IMG/VR virus record: IMGVR_UViG_3300050490_000017
Reading direction: 5' to 3' (one strand)
Length of the DNA: 41,658 bases
DNA from: a virus
In this document: one piece after another, positions 18,617 through 41,658 of the stretch
Numbering within the stretch: the first letter of the stretch is position 1
Layout: each line of letters opens with the position of its first letter
The notes under the pieces: model-generated
Databases searched by the model: none
What the model saw: only the letters and a program-made list of their open reading frames with translations
Told to the model about the DNA's origin: nothing
Made by a program: the position numbers and the translations under genes

Positions 18617-19992
18617 GCACGCCTCCTTTTTTCCTGGCGTTTGAGAAGTTCTGCGAAGGTGAGGTTGGACTTGATCAGGCCGGTCTTTTCATCGGCGTGG
18701 AACGAGATGTCTTTCTTCGGCGGCTCTTTTGGCTTGTCAGCGATGGCTTCCCGCCATGCGAGCCCGAGATAGCGAAACGATGAACCGATGTGTTCGGCCC
18801 AATCCTTCACCGGGTTCTCCCGGAAGGTCTTGAGTTCGTCATCCCATTCGCGCCGGTAGTTCTTCAGGCCCTCGATGCCGAGTTCACACCGTGTCTGGTC
18901 GAAGACGGCCACCTGTATCGTCTTGCGGCCGGCGTTGATGCCATCAGCCACACTGACCTTGGCCACTCGTCTTGGCTTGCGACCGAGTAGCTGCAGAGTT
19001 TCGACCCTGGTGCGCTTCGTGCCCCATTCCGTCACTACAGCGTCATGCGGGACGTAATCGTTGCCCTTGTAGCCCCTGTCATTGAGCCAGCGAATCCAGT
19101 CTTCCAGATCGTCAGACTCAGGCCGGTAGAAATCGACGATGCGCGGCTTGCCCTCCACGACCTGAAAGCACCAGATCGGATTGTTGACCGCCTTTCCCAA
19201 GTCCCATGCCGTATGGACTGGATAGCGCTCGTCAACTGCGACCTCGCAGATCCGGCCGTCGCGTTCAGCCTGTGCAATCTCAGCACCCCAATAGGCGCCG
19301 ACCATCGCTCCAGAGAAGGAGCAGTAATATTCCTGCTCGAACATCGCCAACCCAAGGTCGATGCCGTACAGATCCTGATATTCCGCCAGGCTTTCCGCCA
19401 GTTGCTCTGGCGATAGGGCTCCGGTCTGCGTGATGCTCGACAGTTCAGCGAACCAGTTGTCATTGCCAACGGCGCGATCGAACATCGTCTTGGCGTGGTT
19501 GTTGCCGCGGGGCGTCGTGATGAACGCTGCCGTTCCGTTCGACTCCTCGATCATCGGCTTGTGATATGCCCACGCACCGGGATTGCAGAGTGCCCATTCA
19601 GAATAAGCTATGCCGACAGGACCAGAGCCAACCGTTGCATCGTACCGGTCAGAGCCGAGGAGCTGCCATGTCGAGCCCCACGTCGTCTCGATGAACATGT
19701 CGTTGTCATTGATGCGCTTGCGGATCTCTGGCGGGAATGCCTCATCAATCCGGCGCTTGCCCGTATGGCCGTTGACGCCGTTCCAGATTGCCTTTCGGGC
19801 CTGGGCATATTCGGGGAAACAATGCCAGTAGGTGCCGACGCGCTTTTGAGACAGTTCGCGGAAGCCGTTGAGGACGATCTCATCCTTGCCCCAGCGGCGA
19901 TGGGCGATTTCGATCAGCCGCTTTTTCTTCTGGTTGACGAGCGCTTCATGAAAGGCTCGCTGATACCAGCGGACGCGGAACTGATGGATCAT
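18613..19992 (-). CDS. terL: Terminase large subunit
   Basis: 459 aa. HRRWGKDE is Walker-A-like and GIAYSEWA is Walker-B-like. A C-terminal nuclease-type region is present. ATGA overlap with terS. Confidence 0.9.
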   Translation of the reverse strand: MIHQFRVRWYQRAFHEALVNQKKKRLIEIAHRRWGKDEIVLNGFRELSQKRVGTYWHCFPEYAQARKAIWNGVNGHTGKRRIDEAFPPEIRKRINDNDMFIETTWGSTWQLLGSDRYDATVGSGPVGIAYSEWALCNPGAWAYHKPMIEESNGTAAFITTPRGNNHAKTMFDRAVGNDNWFAELSSITQTGALSPEQLAESLAEYQDLYGIDLGLAMFEQEYYCSFSGAMVGAYWGAEIAQAERDGRICEVAVDERYPVHTAWDLGKAVNNPIWCFQVVEGKPRIVDFYRPESDDLEDWIRWLNDRGYKGNDYVPHDAVVTEWGTKRTRVETLQLLGRKPRRVAKVSVADGINAGRKTIQVAVFDQTRCELGIEGLKNYRREWDDELKTFRENPVKDWAEHIGSSFRYLGLAWREAIADKPKEPPKKDISFHADEKTGLIKSNLTFAELLKRQEKRRRA

Positions 19993-20363
19993 TTTCCTTC
20001 TTCTGGGGTTTGTTCGTAAACCGTCTGGAAGATGACGGACATATCGCCGGAGTGTTCGACTTCCTGCTTTTCGCGCCAGTCGTCAGCAGCCATGTTCTTC
20101 AGCCCGAAGATAACGAGGGTAGCGTTGCCGCCACCATCAGCAGCATTCTTGCGGCCAAGTCGTTCCCACCAAGCCGAACATTTTGCCTTGGCTATCTTTA
20201 CGGCTTCCGAAAATTCGGGGTTCTGCTCCATCCATTCGTTGATGGAAGAGCGAGCAACGCCAATCTCAGCAGCGAACGATGTGAGGCTTGCGCCGTCCGT
20301 CATGTGCTCAATGACTAGGTCACAATAAGCGTCTTGGTATTTGGAAGGCCGGCCGGCTGGCAT
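19989..20363 (-). CDS. terS: Terminase small subunit
   Basis: From ORF 19989..20789. Start moved to ATG 20363 (MPAGRPSKYQDAYCD). It has an HTH segment (LTSFAAEIGVARSSINEWM) and a conserved FGLKN..DDW tail. Confidence 0.85.
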   Translation of the reverse strand: MPAGRPSKYQDAYCDLVIEHMTDGASLTSFAAEIGVARSSINEWMEQNPEFSEAVKIAKAKCSAWWERLGRKNAADGGGNATLVIFGLKNMAADDWREKQEVEHSGDMSVIFQTVYEQTPEEGK

Positions 20364-20515
20364 CAGATCTTCCCCAGGAGGAAGAGCACAAGCACGATGA
20401 TGAGCACGAGGCCGAGCCCACCGGATGGGCCATAGCCCCACGATGCGCTGTAGCCGTGAATGGGAAAGGCGCCGATGAGGAGCAGAACCAGAAGAATGAT
20501 GAGGATGGTGGACAT
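20363..20515 (-). CDS. DUF3309-like small membrane protein (50 aa)
   Basis: Not in the ORF track because it is under 60 aa. Sequence MSTILIILLVLLLIGAFPIHGYSASWGYGPSGGLGLVLIIVLVLFLLGKI. The WGYGPSGGLGLVL core matches DUF3309. Its stop overlaps the terS start (TGATG). Confidence 0.65.
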   Translation of the reverse strand: MSTILIILLVLLLIGAFPIHGYSASWGYGPSGGLGLVLIIVLVLFLLGKI

Positions 20516-20519
20516 TGGC

Positions 20520-20559
20520 TTTACTTTCCGTAGTTACAGGATAGAATGCCGTAGTTACA
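20520..20559 (+). promoter_or_regulatory. Putative sigma70-type promoter with two 11-bp direct repeats (candidate operator) for the BrnA-like gene
   Basis: TTTACT (20520-25), a 16-nt spacer, then TAGAAT (20542-47). CCGTAGTTACA occurs at 20528-38 and 20549-59, a 21-bp period. A GGAG lies 8 nt before ATG 20577. Confidence 0.4.
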
Positions 20560-20576
20560 CAACCGGAGACGAAGAA

Positions 20577-20831
20577 ATGGTGATCCGATTTTCTGGCGAC
20601 ACCGCGGCCCACCAAAGGGATCAGGCAAAGCAGGAGAAGGCTTTTGCCGCTCAGCCACGTGTCGATGTTGACGGGCAAGCGCTTGCAAGGAGTGGCCGCA
20701 AACCAGACCCCAACGCCAAGCAGCTCTTGACGCTTCGCCTTGATCCTCAGGTGATTGAGCATTTCAGATCTACCGGCGAAGGCTGGCAAACCCGTATGAA
20801 CGAAGCGCTTCGAAAGGCTGCTGGCCTATAG
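20577..20831 (+). CDS. BrnA-family (DUF4415-like) antitoxin homologue with no adjacent toxin gene
   Basis: 84 aa. The C-terminus KQLLTLRLDPQVIEHFRSTGEGWQTRMNEALRKAA matches the BrnA antitoxin pattern. It is the 3' part of tracked ORF 20460..20831. Its orientation opposes the surrounding operon. Confidence 0.7.
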   Translation: MVIRFSGDTAAHQRDQAKQEKAFAAQPRVDVDGQALARSGRKPDPNAKQLLTLRLDPQVIEHFRSTGEGWQTRMNEALRKAAGL

Positions 20832-20960
20832 CGCCATCCAGCAATCCGAGCATGGCGGCTGATACGTCGCACACGAAGACAGCCAAAACGCCAGCGCGAA
20901 AGCACCAGCGACTACTGCAATCCAGATTATGCCGCGACGGTAGCGTTGCCAGAAGGTCAT
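20826..20960 (-). CDS. Tiny putative lipoprotein (44 aa)
   Basis: Not in the track. Sequence MTFWQRYRRGIIWIAVVAGAFALAFWLSSCATYQPPCSDCWMAL, with a positively charged n-region, an h-region and lipobox LSS-C. ATGA overlap with the upstream micro-ORF. Confidence 0.4.
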   Translation of the reverse strand: MTFWQRYRRGIIWIAVVAGAFALAFWLSSCATYQPPCSDCWMAL

Positions 20961-22511: not shown

Positions 22512-22730
22512 CTATTGAATGATGCCGCCGCGTAAAGCCTTTGCGACAAGATGCACGCTGTTGACCGCGTGAAGTTTCATCTTGGCATTGGAGATATGGT
22601 TGTTGACCGTGATGTACGAGATGCCGAGGATCGTCGATATGACATCAGCGGTCTTGCCCTCTGCCAGCCACTTGAGGACTTCCAGTTCTCGTTGGGTGAC
22701 GACCGTACGCTCCTTGAGATCGAGGCTCAT
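22512..22730 (-). CDS. LuxR/GerE-type HTH protein, DNA-binding domain only (72 aa)
   Basis: TQRELEVLKWLAEGKTADVISTILGISYITVNNHISNAKMKLHAVNSVHLVAKAL is a textbook GerE helix-turn-helix. Start moved to ATG 22730 (ATGA overlap). Confidence 0.75.
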   Translation of the reverse strand: MSLDLKERTVVTQRELEVLKWLAEGKTADVISTILGISYITVNNHISNAKMKLHAVNSVHLVAKALRGGIIQ

Positions 22731-22966
22731 CAGTCGATCCACCCTTCTCTTATCGCCTTAGCCACAAGGCCGGTTTTGTTGACTACGTCGGCCCGTTCCA
22801 TTGCCTCCTTCAGCCGTCGCTCGACTGATCTGGAGTTATAGCCGGTGATGACGCCGGTCTCGGAAGAGGTCTTTCCATACGAAGCCCAGAGTACGCATTC
22901 CCATTGCTTCTTTGTGAACGGATGTGGGTGCTGCTGCTCCGTGAACGCTGATACATGTACGGTCAT
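22730..22966 (-). CDS. Second, divergent LuxR/GerE-like HTH-only protein (78 aa)
   Basis: TKKQWECVLWASYGKTSSETGVITGYNSRSVERRLKEAMERADVVNKTGLVAKAIREG follows the same GerE layout but is more degenerate. Confidence 0.6.
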   Translation of the reverse strand: MTVHVSAFTEQQHPHPFTKKQWECVLWASYGKTSSETGVITGYNSRSVERRLKEAMERADVVNKTGLVAKAIREGWID

Positions 22967-25758: not shown

Positions 25759-25894
25759 TTTCCTACTAACGCCCTGTTTTAGTTTTCCCGAATCCTCGGG
25801 GGAAATTCCCGACACTGCCGCTCTCCTTTGGTGCATCTTCGCTCTTGTTCACCGGAGCTACTGAAGATGACCAAATGGGACACTCAGATACTAG

Positions 25895-26142
25895 GAGACG
25901 AAGGAGCCGCCCTTGCCGGGGCACTGGCCCCTTCGTCTCGCTCAGGCACCCGCCGCCGGGAACCAGCAATTTTAGTATTCAGCCAGCGCCCCGCCGCCCG
26001 GATATCGCCGGCTGATGCGATGGAGCCCGATGAGGGTTTCGAGTCCTTGGGCTCCATCGCCGTTCGATTGCTTGCTGAATGGAGCAAGCCGCGTATGAGG
26101 TTGCTGGCGCCGCCCCAAGGAGGGGGAAAGGGCGACGCCAGC
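25895..26142. ncRNA. Hairpin-dense non-coding segment (candidate structured RNA; strand unresolved)
   Basis: Four perfect or near-perfect stems: 25895-25904/25930-25939 (10 bp), 26017-26028/26049-26060 (12 bp), 26071-26076/26083-26088 (6 bp) and 26103-26109/26136-26142 plus 26111-26115/26130-26134 (7+5 bp). There is no codon-phase GC bias (about 67/63/58 percent, hand count). Confidence 0.35.
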
Positions 26143-26158
26143 GCCTGACAGTCCTCGA

Positions 26159-28711: not shown

Positions 28712-29083
28712 GTGGCTATGTGGAAAATGAGAAAAATTCAGTTCAAGACTCCTAGTATGGCTAGAAGCAAGGAACCGCTTAGGACAGAGGGCGTACGCCA
28801 CTACATCAGGGAGTGGCGCAAGTTCCGCGGTTTGACGCAGGAGAGGCTTGCCGAGCGAACGCCTTTTACCCACGGCGCCATTTCTCAGGTCGAAACCGGC
28901 CGCACCAGCTACACGCAGGAAATGCTAGAAGCCCTCGCAGTCGCGCTCGATTGCACTCCAGGCGATCTTCTCAACGTAAATCCGTTCAAAGAGGGTGATG
29001 TCGTCGACCTGATGCGGCTCATCAACGACAAGAACCGCGACCAGGCTATCCGCGTCCTTCGGGCGTTGACCGGGAACGACTAG
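28712..29083 (+). CDS. XRE-family HTH repressor (cI-like, no peptidase domain), up to 123 aa
   Basis: IREWRKFRGLTQERLAERTPFTHGAISQVETGRTSYTQEMLEALAVALDCTPGDLL is a canonical XRE HTH. The start is uncertain (GTG 28712, ATG 28718, 28727 or 28760). Confidence 0.8.
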   Translation: MAMWKMRKIQFKTPSMARSKEPLRTEGVRHYIREWRKFRGLTQERLAERTPFTHGAISQVETGRTSYTQEMLEALAVALDCTPGDLLNVNPFKEGDVVDLMRLINDKNRDQAIRVLRALTGND

Positions 29084-37966: not shown

Positions 37967-38139
37967 CAGCCTCCGCACTCCTTCGTCGGTCTGACCTAAA
38001 GCGCATGGCTGAAATCGCCAAGGCGGAAGGCGTGCGCGTGTCAATAGAGATTGACGGCAGGATTATCAGCATTTCCCCCGATATCCACAAGCCAGTTGAG
38101 GAAGACGCGGTTGCCAAGGGGAAGAGGATACGCCTTTGA
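37963..38139 (+). CDS. Hypothetical small protein (58 aa) immediately upstream of int
   Basis: From ORF 37804..38139. Start moved to ATG 37963 (ATGA overlap). No excisionase-type HTH was recognised. Confidence 0.45.
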   Translation: MTASALLRRSDLKRMAEIAKAEGVRVSIEIDGRIISISPDIHKPVEEDAVAKGKRIRL

Positions 38140-39239
38140 TCCCCGACATGCCCCGGAAGCTCCCGCTCAACGTCACCAGGCAACGAACCCGTCACGGTAA
38201 GGTCGTCTTCTATTATCGCGTCGAGAAGGGTCCGCGGACTCGCCTCCCCGATATTGGCGATCCAGATTTCGCCGAAGCCTATGCTGCTTGCGTCTCTGGC
38301 GCTCCGATCAAGAAAAAGGCCAACGAGGACGCCCGCACGCTTGCATGGCTCATCGCCCGGTATATGGAGAGCAGCGCGTGGAAGGAACTGTCAGACGGCA
38401 CGCGCCGGCAGCGCAGCAATATCTTCCATCACGTCAAGACCGATAGCGGCCACGTTCCGTTCAAAGATGTAACCTCGGATTCAATCGAGAACGGCCTTGA
38501 GGATCGTCGGCATACGCCCGTCCAGGCCAATAATTTCCTGAAGGCCATGATGGGCCTCTTCAAATGGGCCAAGAAAGATCACCACGTCGAGGTGAACCCG
38601 ACCGTTGGCGTGGATCGCCTCAAGGTGAAGTCTGACGGCTTCCCGGCTTGGGATCTCGCGGACGTTCGCCGCTACTGCCTGAAATGGGAGATTGGCACTC
38701 CTCAGCGCCTTGCGCTCGAAATCGCGATGCATACCGGATTTCGCCGATCGGATCTCGTCCTCGTCGGCAAGCAACATCTGCGCGACAATGTGCTTTCGCT
38801 GCGGACCACAAAGACCGGTTCTGTCGTCACGGTGGAGTTGCCGCAACGAGTTCTGGATATCATCAAGGTCACGAAGACGGGGGATTTCCACTTCCTCGTC
38901 ACGAGCTTCGGGAAGCCGTTCTCTACTGCAGGATTTGGGAATTGGTTTGGGGAAGCGAGCCGGGAAGCCGGCATCGAGAAGAACACGCATGGTGTTCGCA
39001 AGCTGGCCGCGACAATGGCAGCCAACGGTGGCGCCACCGCTCATGAACTGATGAGCCAGTTCGGGTGGGCCAATTCCAAGCAGGCCGAAGTCTACACCAG
39101 AGGAGCAGACAGGGCGCGCCTTGGCGTCAAGTCTTCTCGGATCGTATCGGAACAGCTTGGGAACATTCTTCCCCCTCACCCTGAAACCGGTGAGGGATTT
39201 ACAGCGAAAAATAAAACGAAATCAATGCCTAAAAAGTAG
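38136..39239 (+). CDS. int: Tyrosine recombinase / phage integrase
   Basis: HTGFRRSDLVLV (Arg box) and HGVRKLAATMAANGGATAHELMSQFGWANSKQAEVYTRGA (H-x-x-R ... Y) are present. The start is TTG 38136 (RBS spacing fits) or ATG 38148. Confidence 0.9.
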   Translation: MIPDMPRKLPLNVTRQRTRHGKVVFYYRVEKGPRTRLPDIGDPDFAEAYAACVSGAPIKKKANEDARTLAWLIARYMESSAWKELSDGTRRQRSNIFHHVKTDSGHVPFKDVTSDSIENGLEDRRHTPVQANNFLKAMMGLFKWAKKDHHVEVNPTVGVDRLKVKSDGFPAWDLADVRRYCLKWEIGTPQRLALEIAMHTGFRRSDLVLVGKQHLRDNVLSLRTTKTGSVVTVELPQRVLDIIKVTKTGDFHFLVTSFGKPFSTAGFGNWFGEASREAGIEKNTHGVRKLAATMAANGGATAHELMSQFGWANSKQAEVYTRGADRARLGVKSSRIVSEQLGNILPPHPETGEGFTAKNKTKSMPKK

Positions 39240-39730: not shown

Positions 39731-39939
39731 TGAACAAGGTTTCCATCATACGCCGCGTGACCTTGTGCGCCCTCGGTAGGTGCCCATGCGCCCCCAGATC
39801 AGACGAAACTGGATGCTGGGGAGAATGCATCCACTGCGACCAGCGATTCGGCTTTGTCGATCGCGCCACGCTCAGGGCTTATGCGGATCGGGAATACGCT
39901 GCCTATCTTGAGAAGGAGACCGCGAATGCCCAAAAATGA
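39727..39939 (+). CDS. Cys-rich small protein (70 aa)
   Basis: Tracked ORF with an ATGA overlap. The pattern CPC...C...CIHC suggests metal binding. Confidence 0.5.
   Translation: MMNKVSIIRRVTLCALGRCPCAPRSDETGCWGECIHCDQRFGFVDRATLRAYADREYAAYLEKETANAQK
39913..39930 (+). repeat. 18-bp start-site repeat AAGGAGACCGCGAATGCC, copy 1 (copy 2 at 40669-40686)
   Basis: Read directly. It contains an AAGGAG RBS and the ATG of the next gene. Both downstream proteins begin MPK. Confidence 0.9.
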
Positions 39940-40477
39940 TCCGAATGACCGTTATATGAAGAAGCCAACCAACCACTACCAGCCTCTTGGCGACTGCGAG
40001 ATTGAGAACAAAGTAGTTACCTATGGGGATCTGGTGCGTGAAGGCCGGCGGATTGGCCGTAGCGGCGACCGGGAAGAGATCGATAATTTTAAGCACCAGA
40101 GCGAGCTGCACTCGATGATAATGCAAGGGAGGTTTGGACAAGGCATGGGAATTAAAGAACCTCAACCAATCTACAGCGGCCCCGAACTCCCTTACCATCG
40201 GGACAAGAACGGTCGCGAGATCAAATACTGCAAGGTCCGCCACGATTGCGGCAAGATATACGACATCCACGGAACGGGCCTGAAAATGCCTGGGGATGGC
40301 TACAGCCTCTTGGCATGGAACGAAGACGATAAGCTGGTCTTCCTCGATACCAGAGACGTCGTTGTCCATGATGAGAGCATTGAATCAGACATCAAGGAAA
40401 TGGCGATCGTCGCGGCTGTGGTTTTGGCAATTCTGTTGCCGGTAGCCATAACAGCAAAATTGTCTTTTGGGTGGTGA
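39926..40477 (+). CDS. Tail-anchored membrane protein (183 aa), function unknown
   Basis: From ORF 39854..40477. Start moved to ATG 39926 (MPKNDPNDRY), preceded by AAGGAG. It has a C-terminal TM helix, MAIVAAVVLAILLPVAITA. Confidence 0.55.
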   Translation: MPKNDPNDRYMKKPTNHYQPLGDCEIENKVVTYGDLVREGRRIGRSGDREEIDNFKHQSELHSMIMQGRFGQGMGIKEPQPIYSGPELPYHRDKNGREIKYCKVRHDCGKIYDIHGTGLKMPGDGYSLLAWNEDDKLVFLDTRDVVVHDESIESDIKEMAIVAAVVLAILLPVAITAKLSFGW

Positions 40478-41531: not shown

Positions 41532-41658
41532 GGCCGCCTGCTTTAAACCATCGAGACGTATCCCGGCGGCCTATAGTACGGATCAAGAAAGGGAGTGAGG
41601 AAGGTCGCGAGTGGGCCCGACATGTCGATATGCGCTTGGACTGTCGGGTGGATGTTGT
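41532..41658. repeat. Second copy of the 127-bp terminal repeat (contains a duplicate of the 3' end of the SGNH gene, 41543-41658 minus strand)
   Basis: Identical to 1-127. Confidence 0.95.

Follow-up and report, generated by a model that had tools for sequence, protein, structure and literature searches.

In type II brnTA toxin-antitoxin (TA) modules, the toxin BrnT (PF04365) is encoded immediately upstream of the antitoxin BrnA, in the same operon. The C-terminal ribbon-helix-helix (RHH) domain of BrnA controls brnTA transcription (PMC11980606), binding and repressing the module's own promoter. Antitoxin genes that stand alone have already been described as orphan antitoxins (PMC7354431). 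Phages are known to use them for counter-defence, as in the case of the DarG-like enzymes acting against DarTG1 (PMC11825919) and of Dmd of phage T4 (PMC7354431). Orphan antitoxin genes of phages are accordingly usually annotated as "antitoxin" and presumed to be counter-defence genes. Here we analyze a solo brnA gene in the virus record IMGVR_UViG_3300050490_000017, a stretch of 41,658 nucleotides that is referred to below as the window. The cassette in question (positions 20516-20831) is best explained as the toxin-less descendant of a brnT-brnA module, which has been kept by a lineage of temperate rhizobiophages and in which selection appears to maintain the RHH half and its operator, the toxin-associated part being gone. 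It is more likely that the solo BrnA is a small phage regulator than a classic BrnT-neutralizing antitoxin.

The window is a metagenome contig (ENA ERZ27257618, k141_3415103). The exact 127-bp direct repeat formed by its two ends (1-127 and 41532-41658) indicates a circular assembly, and the window encodes a tyrosine integrase (38136-39239) together with a CI-like repressor (28712-29083) and a Cro-like gene, which identify the phage as temperate. The window thus holds the entire circular genome, about 41.5 kb in length, of a temperate phage. The phage is of the Rhizobium type; among cultured phages it is closest to RHph_N2, RHph_Y25, RHEph18, and RHph_N3_2, all of them Rhizobium phages, and the named homologues of the BrnA-like protein are from Rhizobium and Sinorhizobium. 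Nearly all genes between position 12 and about 28.6 kb form a minus-strand array of about 28 kb, in which brnA is one of two exceptions on the plus strand. The initial annotation had placed the gene antisense to the surrounding operon, and this arrangement was found as described, with brnA lying directly upstream of the genes for DUF3309, TerS, and TerL.

The open reading frame (ORF) runs on the plus strand from the ATG at 20577 to the TAG at 20829-20831 and encodes 84 amino acids (aa), the homologues beginning with MAI[KR]F or MALFHQ, in agreement with this start codon. Its assignment to the BrnA/DUF4415 family, made at first from the letters alone, is borne out by the Pfam search: the protein matches PF14384 (BrnA_antitoxin, DUF4415) with an E-value of 9.4e-20 and 71.2 bits, compared to a cut-off of 26.1 bits, and the match spans positions 10-68 of the 68 in the profile. 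A second match, with an E-value of 3e-18, is to PHROG 4692 ("antitoxin from a toxin-antitoxin system"). These profile matches place the protein in the BrnA family, PF14384 being also the family of the canonical antitoxins. Across 41 homologues, K48, R54, G67, G69, W70, Q71, R73, and R79 are invariant, and the strand-helix-helix pattern of a putative RHH domain is kept, with LLTLRLD followed by two helices. Two residues of the RHH strand, T52 and R54, show little or no variation in solo and BrnT-paired BrnAs alike.

An AlphaFold 2 (AF2) model of the monomer, which is of low confidence (pLDDT 67, pTM 0.24), shows helices at residues 9-24, 57-66, and 70-81. The RHH strand is not formed in this model, which was made without a dimer partner (pLDDT 67), and the model is compatible with an RHH fold whose strand forms only in the dimer. 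A sequence search of the PDB with the 84-aa protein gave nothing at E ≤ 1, and a Foldseek comparison of the AF2 model with the PDB gave no meaningful match. Neither the NCBIfam models nor PADLOC gave a significant match for BrnA or the neighboring proteins, and no Rfam family was found anywhere in the window.

For comparison, 160 BrnA-encoding loci were fetched from viral and bacterial collections. BrnA matches in these loci number 180, of which 150 are directly preceded by a BrnT ORF, the other 30 being solo. The closest fetched relatives of the gene studied here are all solo; they come from 14 distinct loci (L004-L017, with L087 duplicating L010), and L031 and L034 are solo as well. Most of the solo relatives are encoded by prophages or by viral contigs with a length of about 42-46 kb.

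The initial annotation had also described the gene as an orphan, and indeed BrnT is undetected in the complete circular phage genome. The profile hidden Markov model (HMM) used for this search started from two phage seeds, namely the BrnT that is annotated in Bordetella phage vB_BaM-IFTN4 and an ORF, annotated as hypothetical, that precedes brnA in a Burkholderia phage. With the fetched loci, the set then grew to 143 BrnT ORFs. No match at E ≤ 10 was obtained among the six-frame segments of at least 40 aa of the window, and with the filters off and segments of at least 20 aa the best match has an E-value of 0.5 and 6.9 bits. As the genome is complete and the BrnT search negative, the orphan status is firm. 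In place of the type II arrangement, with BrnT immediately upstream in the same operon, the window has brnA first and alone behind its promoter. The gene is monocistronic, because it lacks a co-oriented neighbor, the upstream gene being divergent and the downstream one convergent. The brnTA modules of other phages, namely that of Bordetella phage vB_BaM-IFTN4 and those of Burkholderia phages such as vB_PR2a, encode BrnA proteins that are 43-54% identical to the solo protein over the RHH half. However, these modules retain the upstream BrnT (annotated as such in vB_BaM-IFTN4, whereas the vB_PR2a ORF is annotated as hypothetical and was used as a BrnT seed), and they occupy other genome positions than the solo cassette.

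The promoter proposed upstream of brnA and the two exact 11-bp repeats that overlap it could both be verified in the sequence. The two hexamers, TTTACT and TAGAAT, are those of a sigma-70-type promoter and are separated by a spacer of 16 nt, and a promoter scan of 2.4 kb returned two promoter-like matches, one of them the brnA promoter, with 0.9 expected. The repeat CCGTAGTTACA is located at 20528-20538 and 20549-20559, with a spacing of 21 bp, and nowhere else in the window. This pair is the only close exact repeat of at least 11 bp in the window. Nevertheless, 23.5% of simulated genomes of matching composition (first-order Markov) contain at least one such close repeat, with a mean of 0.28, and the pair alone is therefore not significant (p about 0.24). 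It is the conservation in the relatives that makes it convincing.

Two 8-bp boxes, with the sequence GTAGTTAC or a variant of the form GTA-NN-TAC, are found just 5' of brnA in 15-16 of the 17 related solo loci. In most of these the spacing of the boxes is 21-22 bp, and the pair flanks the -10 hexamer, such that the solo genes share the upstream order of -35-like hexamer, box, -10-like hexamer, box, Shine-Dalgarno sequence, and ATG. When 12 related upstream regions are aligned, the GTA of both boxes and the TAC of box 2 are invariant and the TAC of box 1 nearly so, while the sequence around the boxes diverges, the mean column identity being 50%. The variants GTAGCTAC, GTAACTAC, GTATATAC, and GTATTTAC occur among the relatives with the two-box layout unaltered. 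Since the sequence of the box drifts and the layout is kept, the functional core is probably the 8-bp GTA-NN-TAC rather than the 11-mer. The earlier suggestion that the repeats are operator-like and that the gene has its own promoter is thus supported by the conservation of both in divergent relatives. In the window, the pattern GTARYTAC is found three times, compared to 0.34 expected, with two of the sites at the brnA promoter and a lone one at 40013. The latter, a third GTAGTTAC (40013-40020, plus strand) inside the ORF 39854-40477, is without the flanking T/A context and was taken as chance; paired boxes occur at the brnA promoter only.

The same box is common at the promoters of the canonical modules. 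At least one GTA-NN-TAC is present within 120 bp 5' of canonical brnT in 45 of 82 non-redundant loci (55%), compared to 33 of 1640 random control windows taken from the same loci (2%). The loci with boxes in front of brnT include L018, L051, L061, L092, L095, L110, and L123, where the forms GTAGTTAC, GTAGCTAC, and GTATATAC are seen, and the brnTA promoters of Rhizobiales mostly have GTATATAC, often in two copies. GTA-NN-TAC looks like an ancestral, family-wide candidate operator of BrnA, and no description of it in this role was found in the literature searched. In view of its presence at canonical brnTA promoters and of the control of brnTA by the RHH domain (PMC11980606), the solo cassette appears to have kept the ancestral circuit of promoter, operator, and RHH protein.

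The N-terminal part of the protein behaves differently. BrnT-paired BrnAs have in common the N-terminal motif DPD-x2-PE-x-T-x-E-x-F (consensus ..AADPDDAPELTDEDFAKA..), which an HMM detects in 106 of 107 paired proteins with a median of 27.7 bits. In the solo clade, by contrast, the same HMM gives at most 2.1 bits in all 14 proteins (-0.9 bits for the protein of the window), and the motif is replaced by clade-specific N-termini of two types, MAI[KR][FY], to which the window protein belongs, and MALFHQI[KR]R. Profiles of these two types match solo loci only and never a BrnT-paired BrnA, and when a profile of the solo N-termini was compared with 5.8 billion proteins, every match belonged to this clade. 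We have also considered the possibility that the solo N-terminus is a remnant of the BrnT N-terminus (MxIxF...), which was rejected, as the BrnT HMM gives just 1.6 bits and the hhalign comparison of either solo subgroup with the BrnT alignment gives a probability of at most 0.5%.

The ratio of nonsynonymous to synonymous substitution rates (dN/dS) is 0.04-0.17 for the RHH half, over synonymous distances (dS) of 0.4-1.2, and 0.27-0.43 for the N-terminal half of the relatives. The former values indicate that the RHH half is under strong purifying selection. At the DNA level, conservation with the relatives reaches 90-92% in the promoter (20516-20590) and in the RHH half and the sequence downstream of it (20690-20885). 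The intervening segment, 20591-20689, is unconserved between these conserved flanks, which points to mosaic exchange. Two further proteins are of interest in this regard, P0067 (144 aa, from a Logan assembly), in which a T5orf172/GIY-YIG-like domain is fused to the same RHH tail, and P0002 (124 aa), where the two solo N-terminal types follow one another in tandem ahead of the RHH. Their architectures suggest a modular exchange of the N-terminal part, and that of P0067 fits an RHH tail that serves as a portable DNA-binding module.

The position of the cassette is also shared among the relatives. Wherever the flanks are recognizable, brnA is on the opposite strand, with terL on one side and the genes for a 215-aa protein and GerE-like proteins on the other. 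The divergent gap 5' of the gene is 52-97 bp in most solo loci, and in the window 61 bp separate the start of the DUF3309 gene (20515) from that of brnA. In the related cultured phage RHph_N3_2, this slot is occupied by EVB98_066, a solo DUF4415 gene that is likewise antisense and located between a regulatory block and the packaging genes, although its product has 72 aa and is only 33-44% identical. In a prophage of the Rhizobium johnstonii chromosome (L167), the cassette is found at the same place even though the families of terS, terL, portal, and coat are different ones there (Terminase_2, Terminase_3, and the P22 portal and coat). RHph_N2, on the other hand, is without the cassette, and its homology to the window sets in again only a few bases after the stop codon of brnA (20837-20882). 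The comparison thus describes the cassette as a discrete and dispensable module in a constant position across the phage lineage. The initial annotation had spoken of an inserted cassette, a term that suggests a recent event and needs correction, the cassette being conserved, if dispensable, throughout the lineage. The coordinates of the cassette and its immediate neighbors are collected in Table 1.

Table 1. Features of the solo brnA cassette and of the adjoining genes (positions in the window).
Feature	Position	Strand	Basis
-35-like hexamer TTTACT; immediately next to the DUF3309 ribosome-binding region	20520..20525	+	Promoter scan; TTGACT, TTGAAT, TTGATT, TTGCAT in relatives
Operator box 1 (putative), GTAGTTAC; core of the 20528-20538 repeat, quasi-palindrome GTA-NN-TAC	20530..20537	+	Exact repeat; conservation; upstream regions of canonical brnT
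-10-like hexamer TAGAAT; between both boxes	20542..20547	+	Promoter scan; TAGAAT, TATAAT, TATATT, TACAAT in relatives
Operator box 2 (putative), GTAGTTAC; core of the 20549-20559 repeat, covers the inferred transcription start	20551..20558	+	Repeat and conservation
Shine-Dalgarno sequence GGAG; 8 nt 5' of the ATG	20565..20568	+	Sequence inspection; GGAG or GAGG at the aligned place in relatives
brnA-like gene, 84 aa, monocistronic	20577..20831	+	Pfam PF14384, PHROG 4692
N-terminal region, codons 1-38, fast-evolving	20577-20690	+	
Conserved RHH half, codons 39-84	20691-20828	+	
DUF3309 membrane protein, 50 aa; divergent neighbor, first of the DUF3309-terS-terL block	20363..20515	-	Pfam PF11752, E 2e-21
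terS, small terminase subunit	19989..20363	-	PHROG 309, E 6e-32; weak Pfam matches to GP3_package and Sf6_terminase
sm44, 44-aa lipoprotein-like ORF; convergent neighbor, right-hand boundary of the cassette	20826..20960	-	ORF list, sequence

Based on these results, we favor a scenario, to which we assign about an even chance, in which the gene encodes an autoregulated BrnA-derived RHH repressor in a moron-like cassette that acts as a local gate or insulator at the entrance of the packaging operon, possibly with an additional function of the N-terminus. The solo BrnA would work here as a DNA-binding regulator and not as a canonical BrnT-binding antitoxin. Expression of the gene would rely on the host sigma-70 RNA polymerase and would not depend on the late operon, and BrnA dimers, by binding to the two boxes, would repress the promoter of their own gene. 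Such autorepression would result in a low and steady protein level whenever the host polymerase has access to the promoter, for example in the lysogen. The boxes precede the first packaging gene by 15-45 bp, and the bound repressor, together with the outward-firing promoter, may form a gate or insulator against minus-strand read-through into DUF3309-terS-terL. The role is suggested to be a local one because the only paired boxes of the genome are at the brnA promoter, near the first packaging gene and in a short divergent gap. The variable N-terminus may add a further function at the protein level. The head-on collision with transcription directed toward terS, which had been pointed out at the outset, is likewise predicted from the geometry of the locus.

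The small RHH repressors Arc and Mnt of the temperate Salmonella phage P22 offer a possible analogy. They are autoregulated from operators that overlap their promoters, and they sit in an accessory control region among the late genes, where they control an antirepressor gene. The solo BrnA may resemble them in these respects, but no antirepressor-type target is evident in the window.

It had also been proposed that the cassette is a lysogen-expressed moron. Its own promoter-like hexamers, which are conserved, its opposite orientation, and its presence/absence polymorphism, with RHph_N2 lacking it, agree with this proposal, and expression in the lysogen is plausible because the phage is temperate. 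The part that did not hold is the terminator of its own that a moron would have: no terminator-like site was found on the plus strand after the brnA stop, and the folding of 20800-20960 gives z = +0.99, i.e., no stable structure.

Several observations weigh against the gating repressor. Autorepression by the solo BrnA is a prediction drawn from the sequence and from the behavior of the canonical modules, and the structure model of the protein is of low confidence (pLDDT 67). The promoter hexamers match at just 9 of 12 positions. In L013 and L167 the boxes are only 12-13 bp apart and have no -10 hexamer in between, and the RHph_N3_2 gene, in a further difference from the window, has no recognizable GTA-NN-TAC boxes upstream. 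The existence of RHph_N2 and relatives without the cassette means that any gate function is dispensable. Finally, the role of the missing N-terminal motif as a toxin-binding element is deduced from its co-occurrence with BrnT, and the N-terminus of the solo proteins, conserved at the first 5-9 residues and fast-evolving elsewhere, would also fit a partner-binding antitoxin arm.

This last point leads to the alternative in which the cassette is an orphan antitoxin in the usual sense. Here, the N-terminal arm would neutralize a host- or plasmid-encoded BrnT, or another toxin, and thereby block abortive infection or post-segregational killing, the promoter being simply that of type II TA control. 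We consider this unlikely, although it deserves serious attention, since the protein is a clear member of the BrnA family, its autoregulatory layout is typical of type II antitoxins, and brnTA modules are known both in Rhizobiales and on other phages. An N-terminus that evolves about five times faster than the RHH half, exists in two types, and forms a mosaic block would fit a changing partner specificity, and there are the phage precedents quoted above (PMC11825919, and the discussion of Dmd in PMC7354431). Dmd and the DarG-like enzymes are, like the solo BrnA, antitoxin homologues on phages that do not encode the toxin; they have, however, retained the neutralizing activity, whereas the solo BrnA is without the toxin-associated part and its DNA-binding part is conserved. 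The idea that the protein neutralizes a host BrnT, put forward in the initial annotation, is weakened by the absence of the paired-BrnA N-terminal motif from all 14 solo proteins and by the fact that their N-terminal types are never seen with BrnT, or in any other protein context. A search for host toxins had been suggested there; in two tblastn searches, which covered plasmids and not chromosomes, no Rhizobium or Sinorhizobium plasmid BrnT is among the matches listed. The lack of a PADLOC match also speaks against an orphan antitoxin, and as the toxin is missing, there are no grounds for the further suggestion that the gene could addict the host. Among the same matches, many BrnT genes on plasmids of Acetobacteraceae, Azospirillum, and Methylobacterium (H87-H91 and H96-H100) are paired with an antitoxin of the helix-turn-helix (HTH) or MqsA type and not with BrnA, so that the partners of BrnT appear to be interchangeable.

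The protein could instead act on foreign promoters, binding in trans to the GTA-NN-TAC of a brnTA module resident in the host, on a plasmid, or in a rival prophage, or forming mixed dimers with its BrnA, and in this way rewire TA transcription. The presence of the same box at canonical brnTA promoters, those of Rhizobiales included, the (near) invariance of T52 and R54 across solo and paired proteins, and the absence of a second paired target in the phage genome, where only the intragenic copy at 40013 is found, are in line with this proposal. On the other hand, repression of a TA operon is expected to free the stable toxin and thus to harm the lysogen, and the Rhizobiales modules mostly have GTATATAC and not GTAGTTAC, which makes such a hijack improbable. 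A broader formulation, namely that the operator-binding half and the operator constitute a DNA-level device that gates the packaging operon, occupies the GTA-NN-TAC operators of resident brnTA modules, or does both, is somewhat easier to accept but still rather doubtful. If it were correct, a host TA system would be manipulated through its promoter and not through its toxin.

A quite different possibility is that BrnA is the regulator or antidote of the small membrane protein encoded next to it, either DUF3309 or a 63-66-aa protein with two transmembrane (TM) segments, which might be toxic in the manner of a holin, and that it represses this divergent gene. A small, very hydrophobic divergent ORF just before terS, of the DUF3309 or the 63-66-aa two-TM type, is present in 7 of the 17 solo loci (including L008, L013, L015, and L167), with the operator beside its ribosome-binding site. 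However, the divergent neighbor is another gene in the other 10 loci, in some of them terS itself, RHph_N2 has DUF3309 without brnA, and the DUF3309 gene lies inside a long operon with no evident promoter of its own. We thus regard this role as very improbable. Least credible is the notion that the cassette is a decaying, functionless remnant of brnTA. It would account for the loss of the toxin and of the canonical N-terminal motif, but the ORF is intact, many divergent phages and prophages have conserved its promoter, its boxes, and its position, and the dN/dS values of the RHH half (0.04-0.17 over dS of 0.4-1.2) are those of a maintained protein. This reading appears effectively refuted by the selection and conservation data.

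What appears to be new in the present case is a coherent phage clade that keeps just the DNA-binding half of BrnA and its operator, in a fixed genomic slot; a paper on temperate Rhizobium phages makes no mention of this gene. Should it be confirmed that selection keeps the DNA-binding part and its operator in this clade while the toxin-associated part is gone, this would call for caution in reading solo antitoxin homologues as weapons against toxins and would provide GTA-NN-TAC as a candidate operator consensus for the BrnA family. The early/late boundary of the poorly studied temperate rhizobiophages would also gain a small regulatory element that is easy to test.

On the downstream side of the cassette, the stop codon of sm44 overlaps that of brnA inside the palindrome CTATAG. 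The sm44 product has a lipobox-like LSSC and a Cys-rich tail. Homologues of sm44 adjoin brnA in L004, L008, and L015, and a 46-bp stretch of the gene (20837-20882) is 93% identical to RHph_N2, RHph_Y25, and RHEph18, where the homologous ORF is unannotated. On the other side of the cassette, terS is followed by terL and portal, which are named here from the gene order and from homologues in related loci, without a profile match.

To the right of sm44 there are small ORFs, a conserved gene for a 215-aa protein, and two GerE/LuxR-like genes. The term "late leader genes" applied to this region in the initial annotation is a label only, as no function was assigned by the Pfam and PHROG searches. 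The two GerE/LuxR-like genes are adjacent small paralogues on the minus strand (22512-22742 and 22730-22966), the first with an HTH of the GerE/LuxR type (Pfam, E 1e-16) and the second resembling it weakly; related phages have kept the pair upstream of their brnA slot, and the two genes are candidate late regulators. The other plus-strand gene in the minus-strand array (25867-26148) encodes 93 aa without a Pfam match and may be another antisense accessory cassette.

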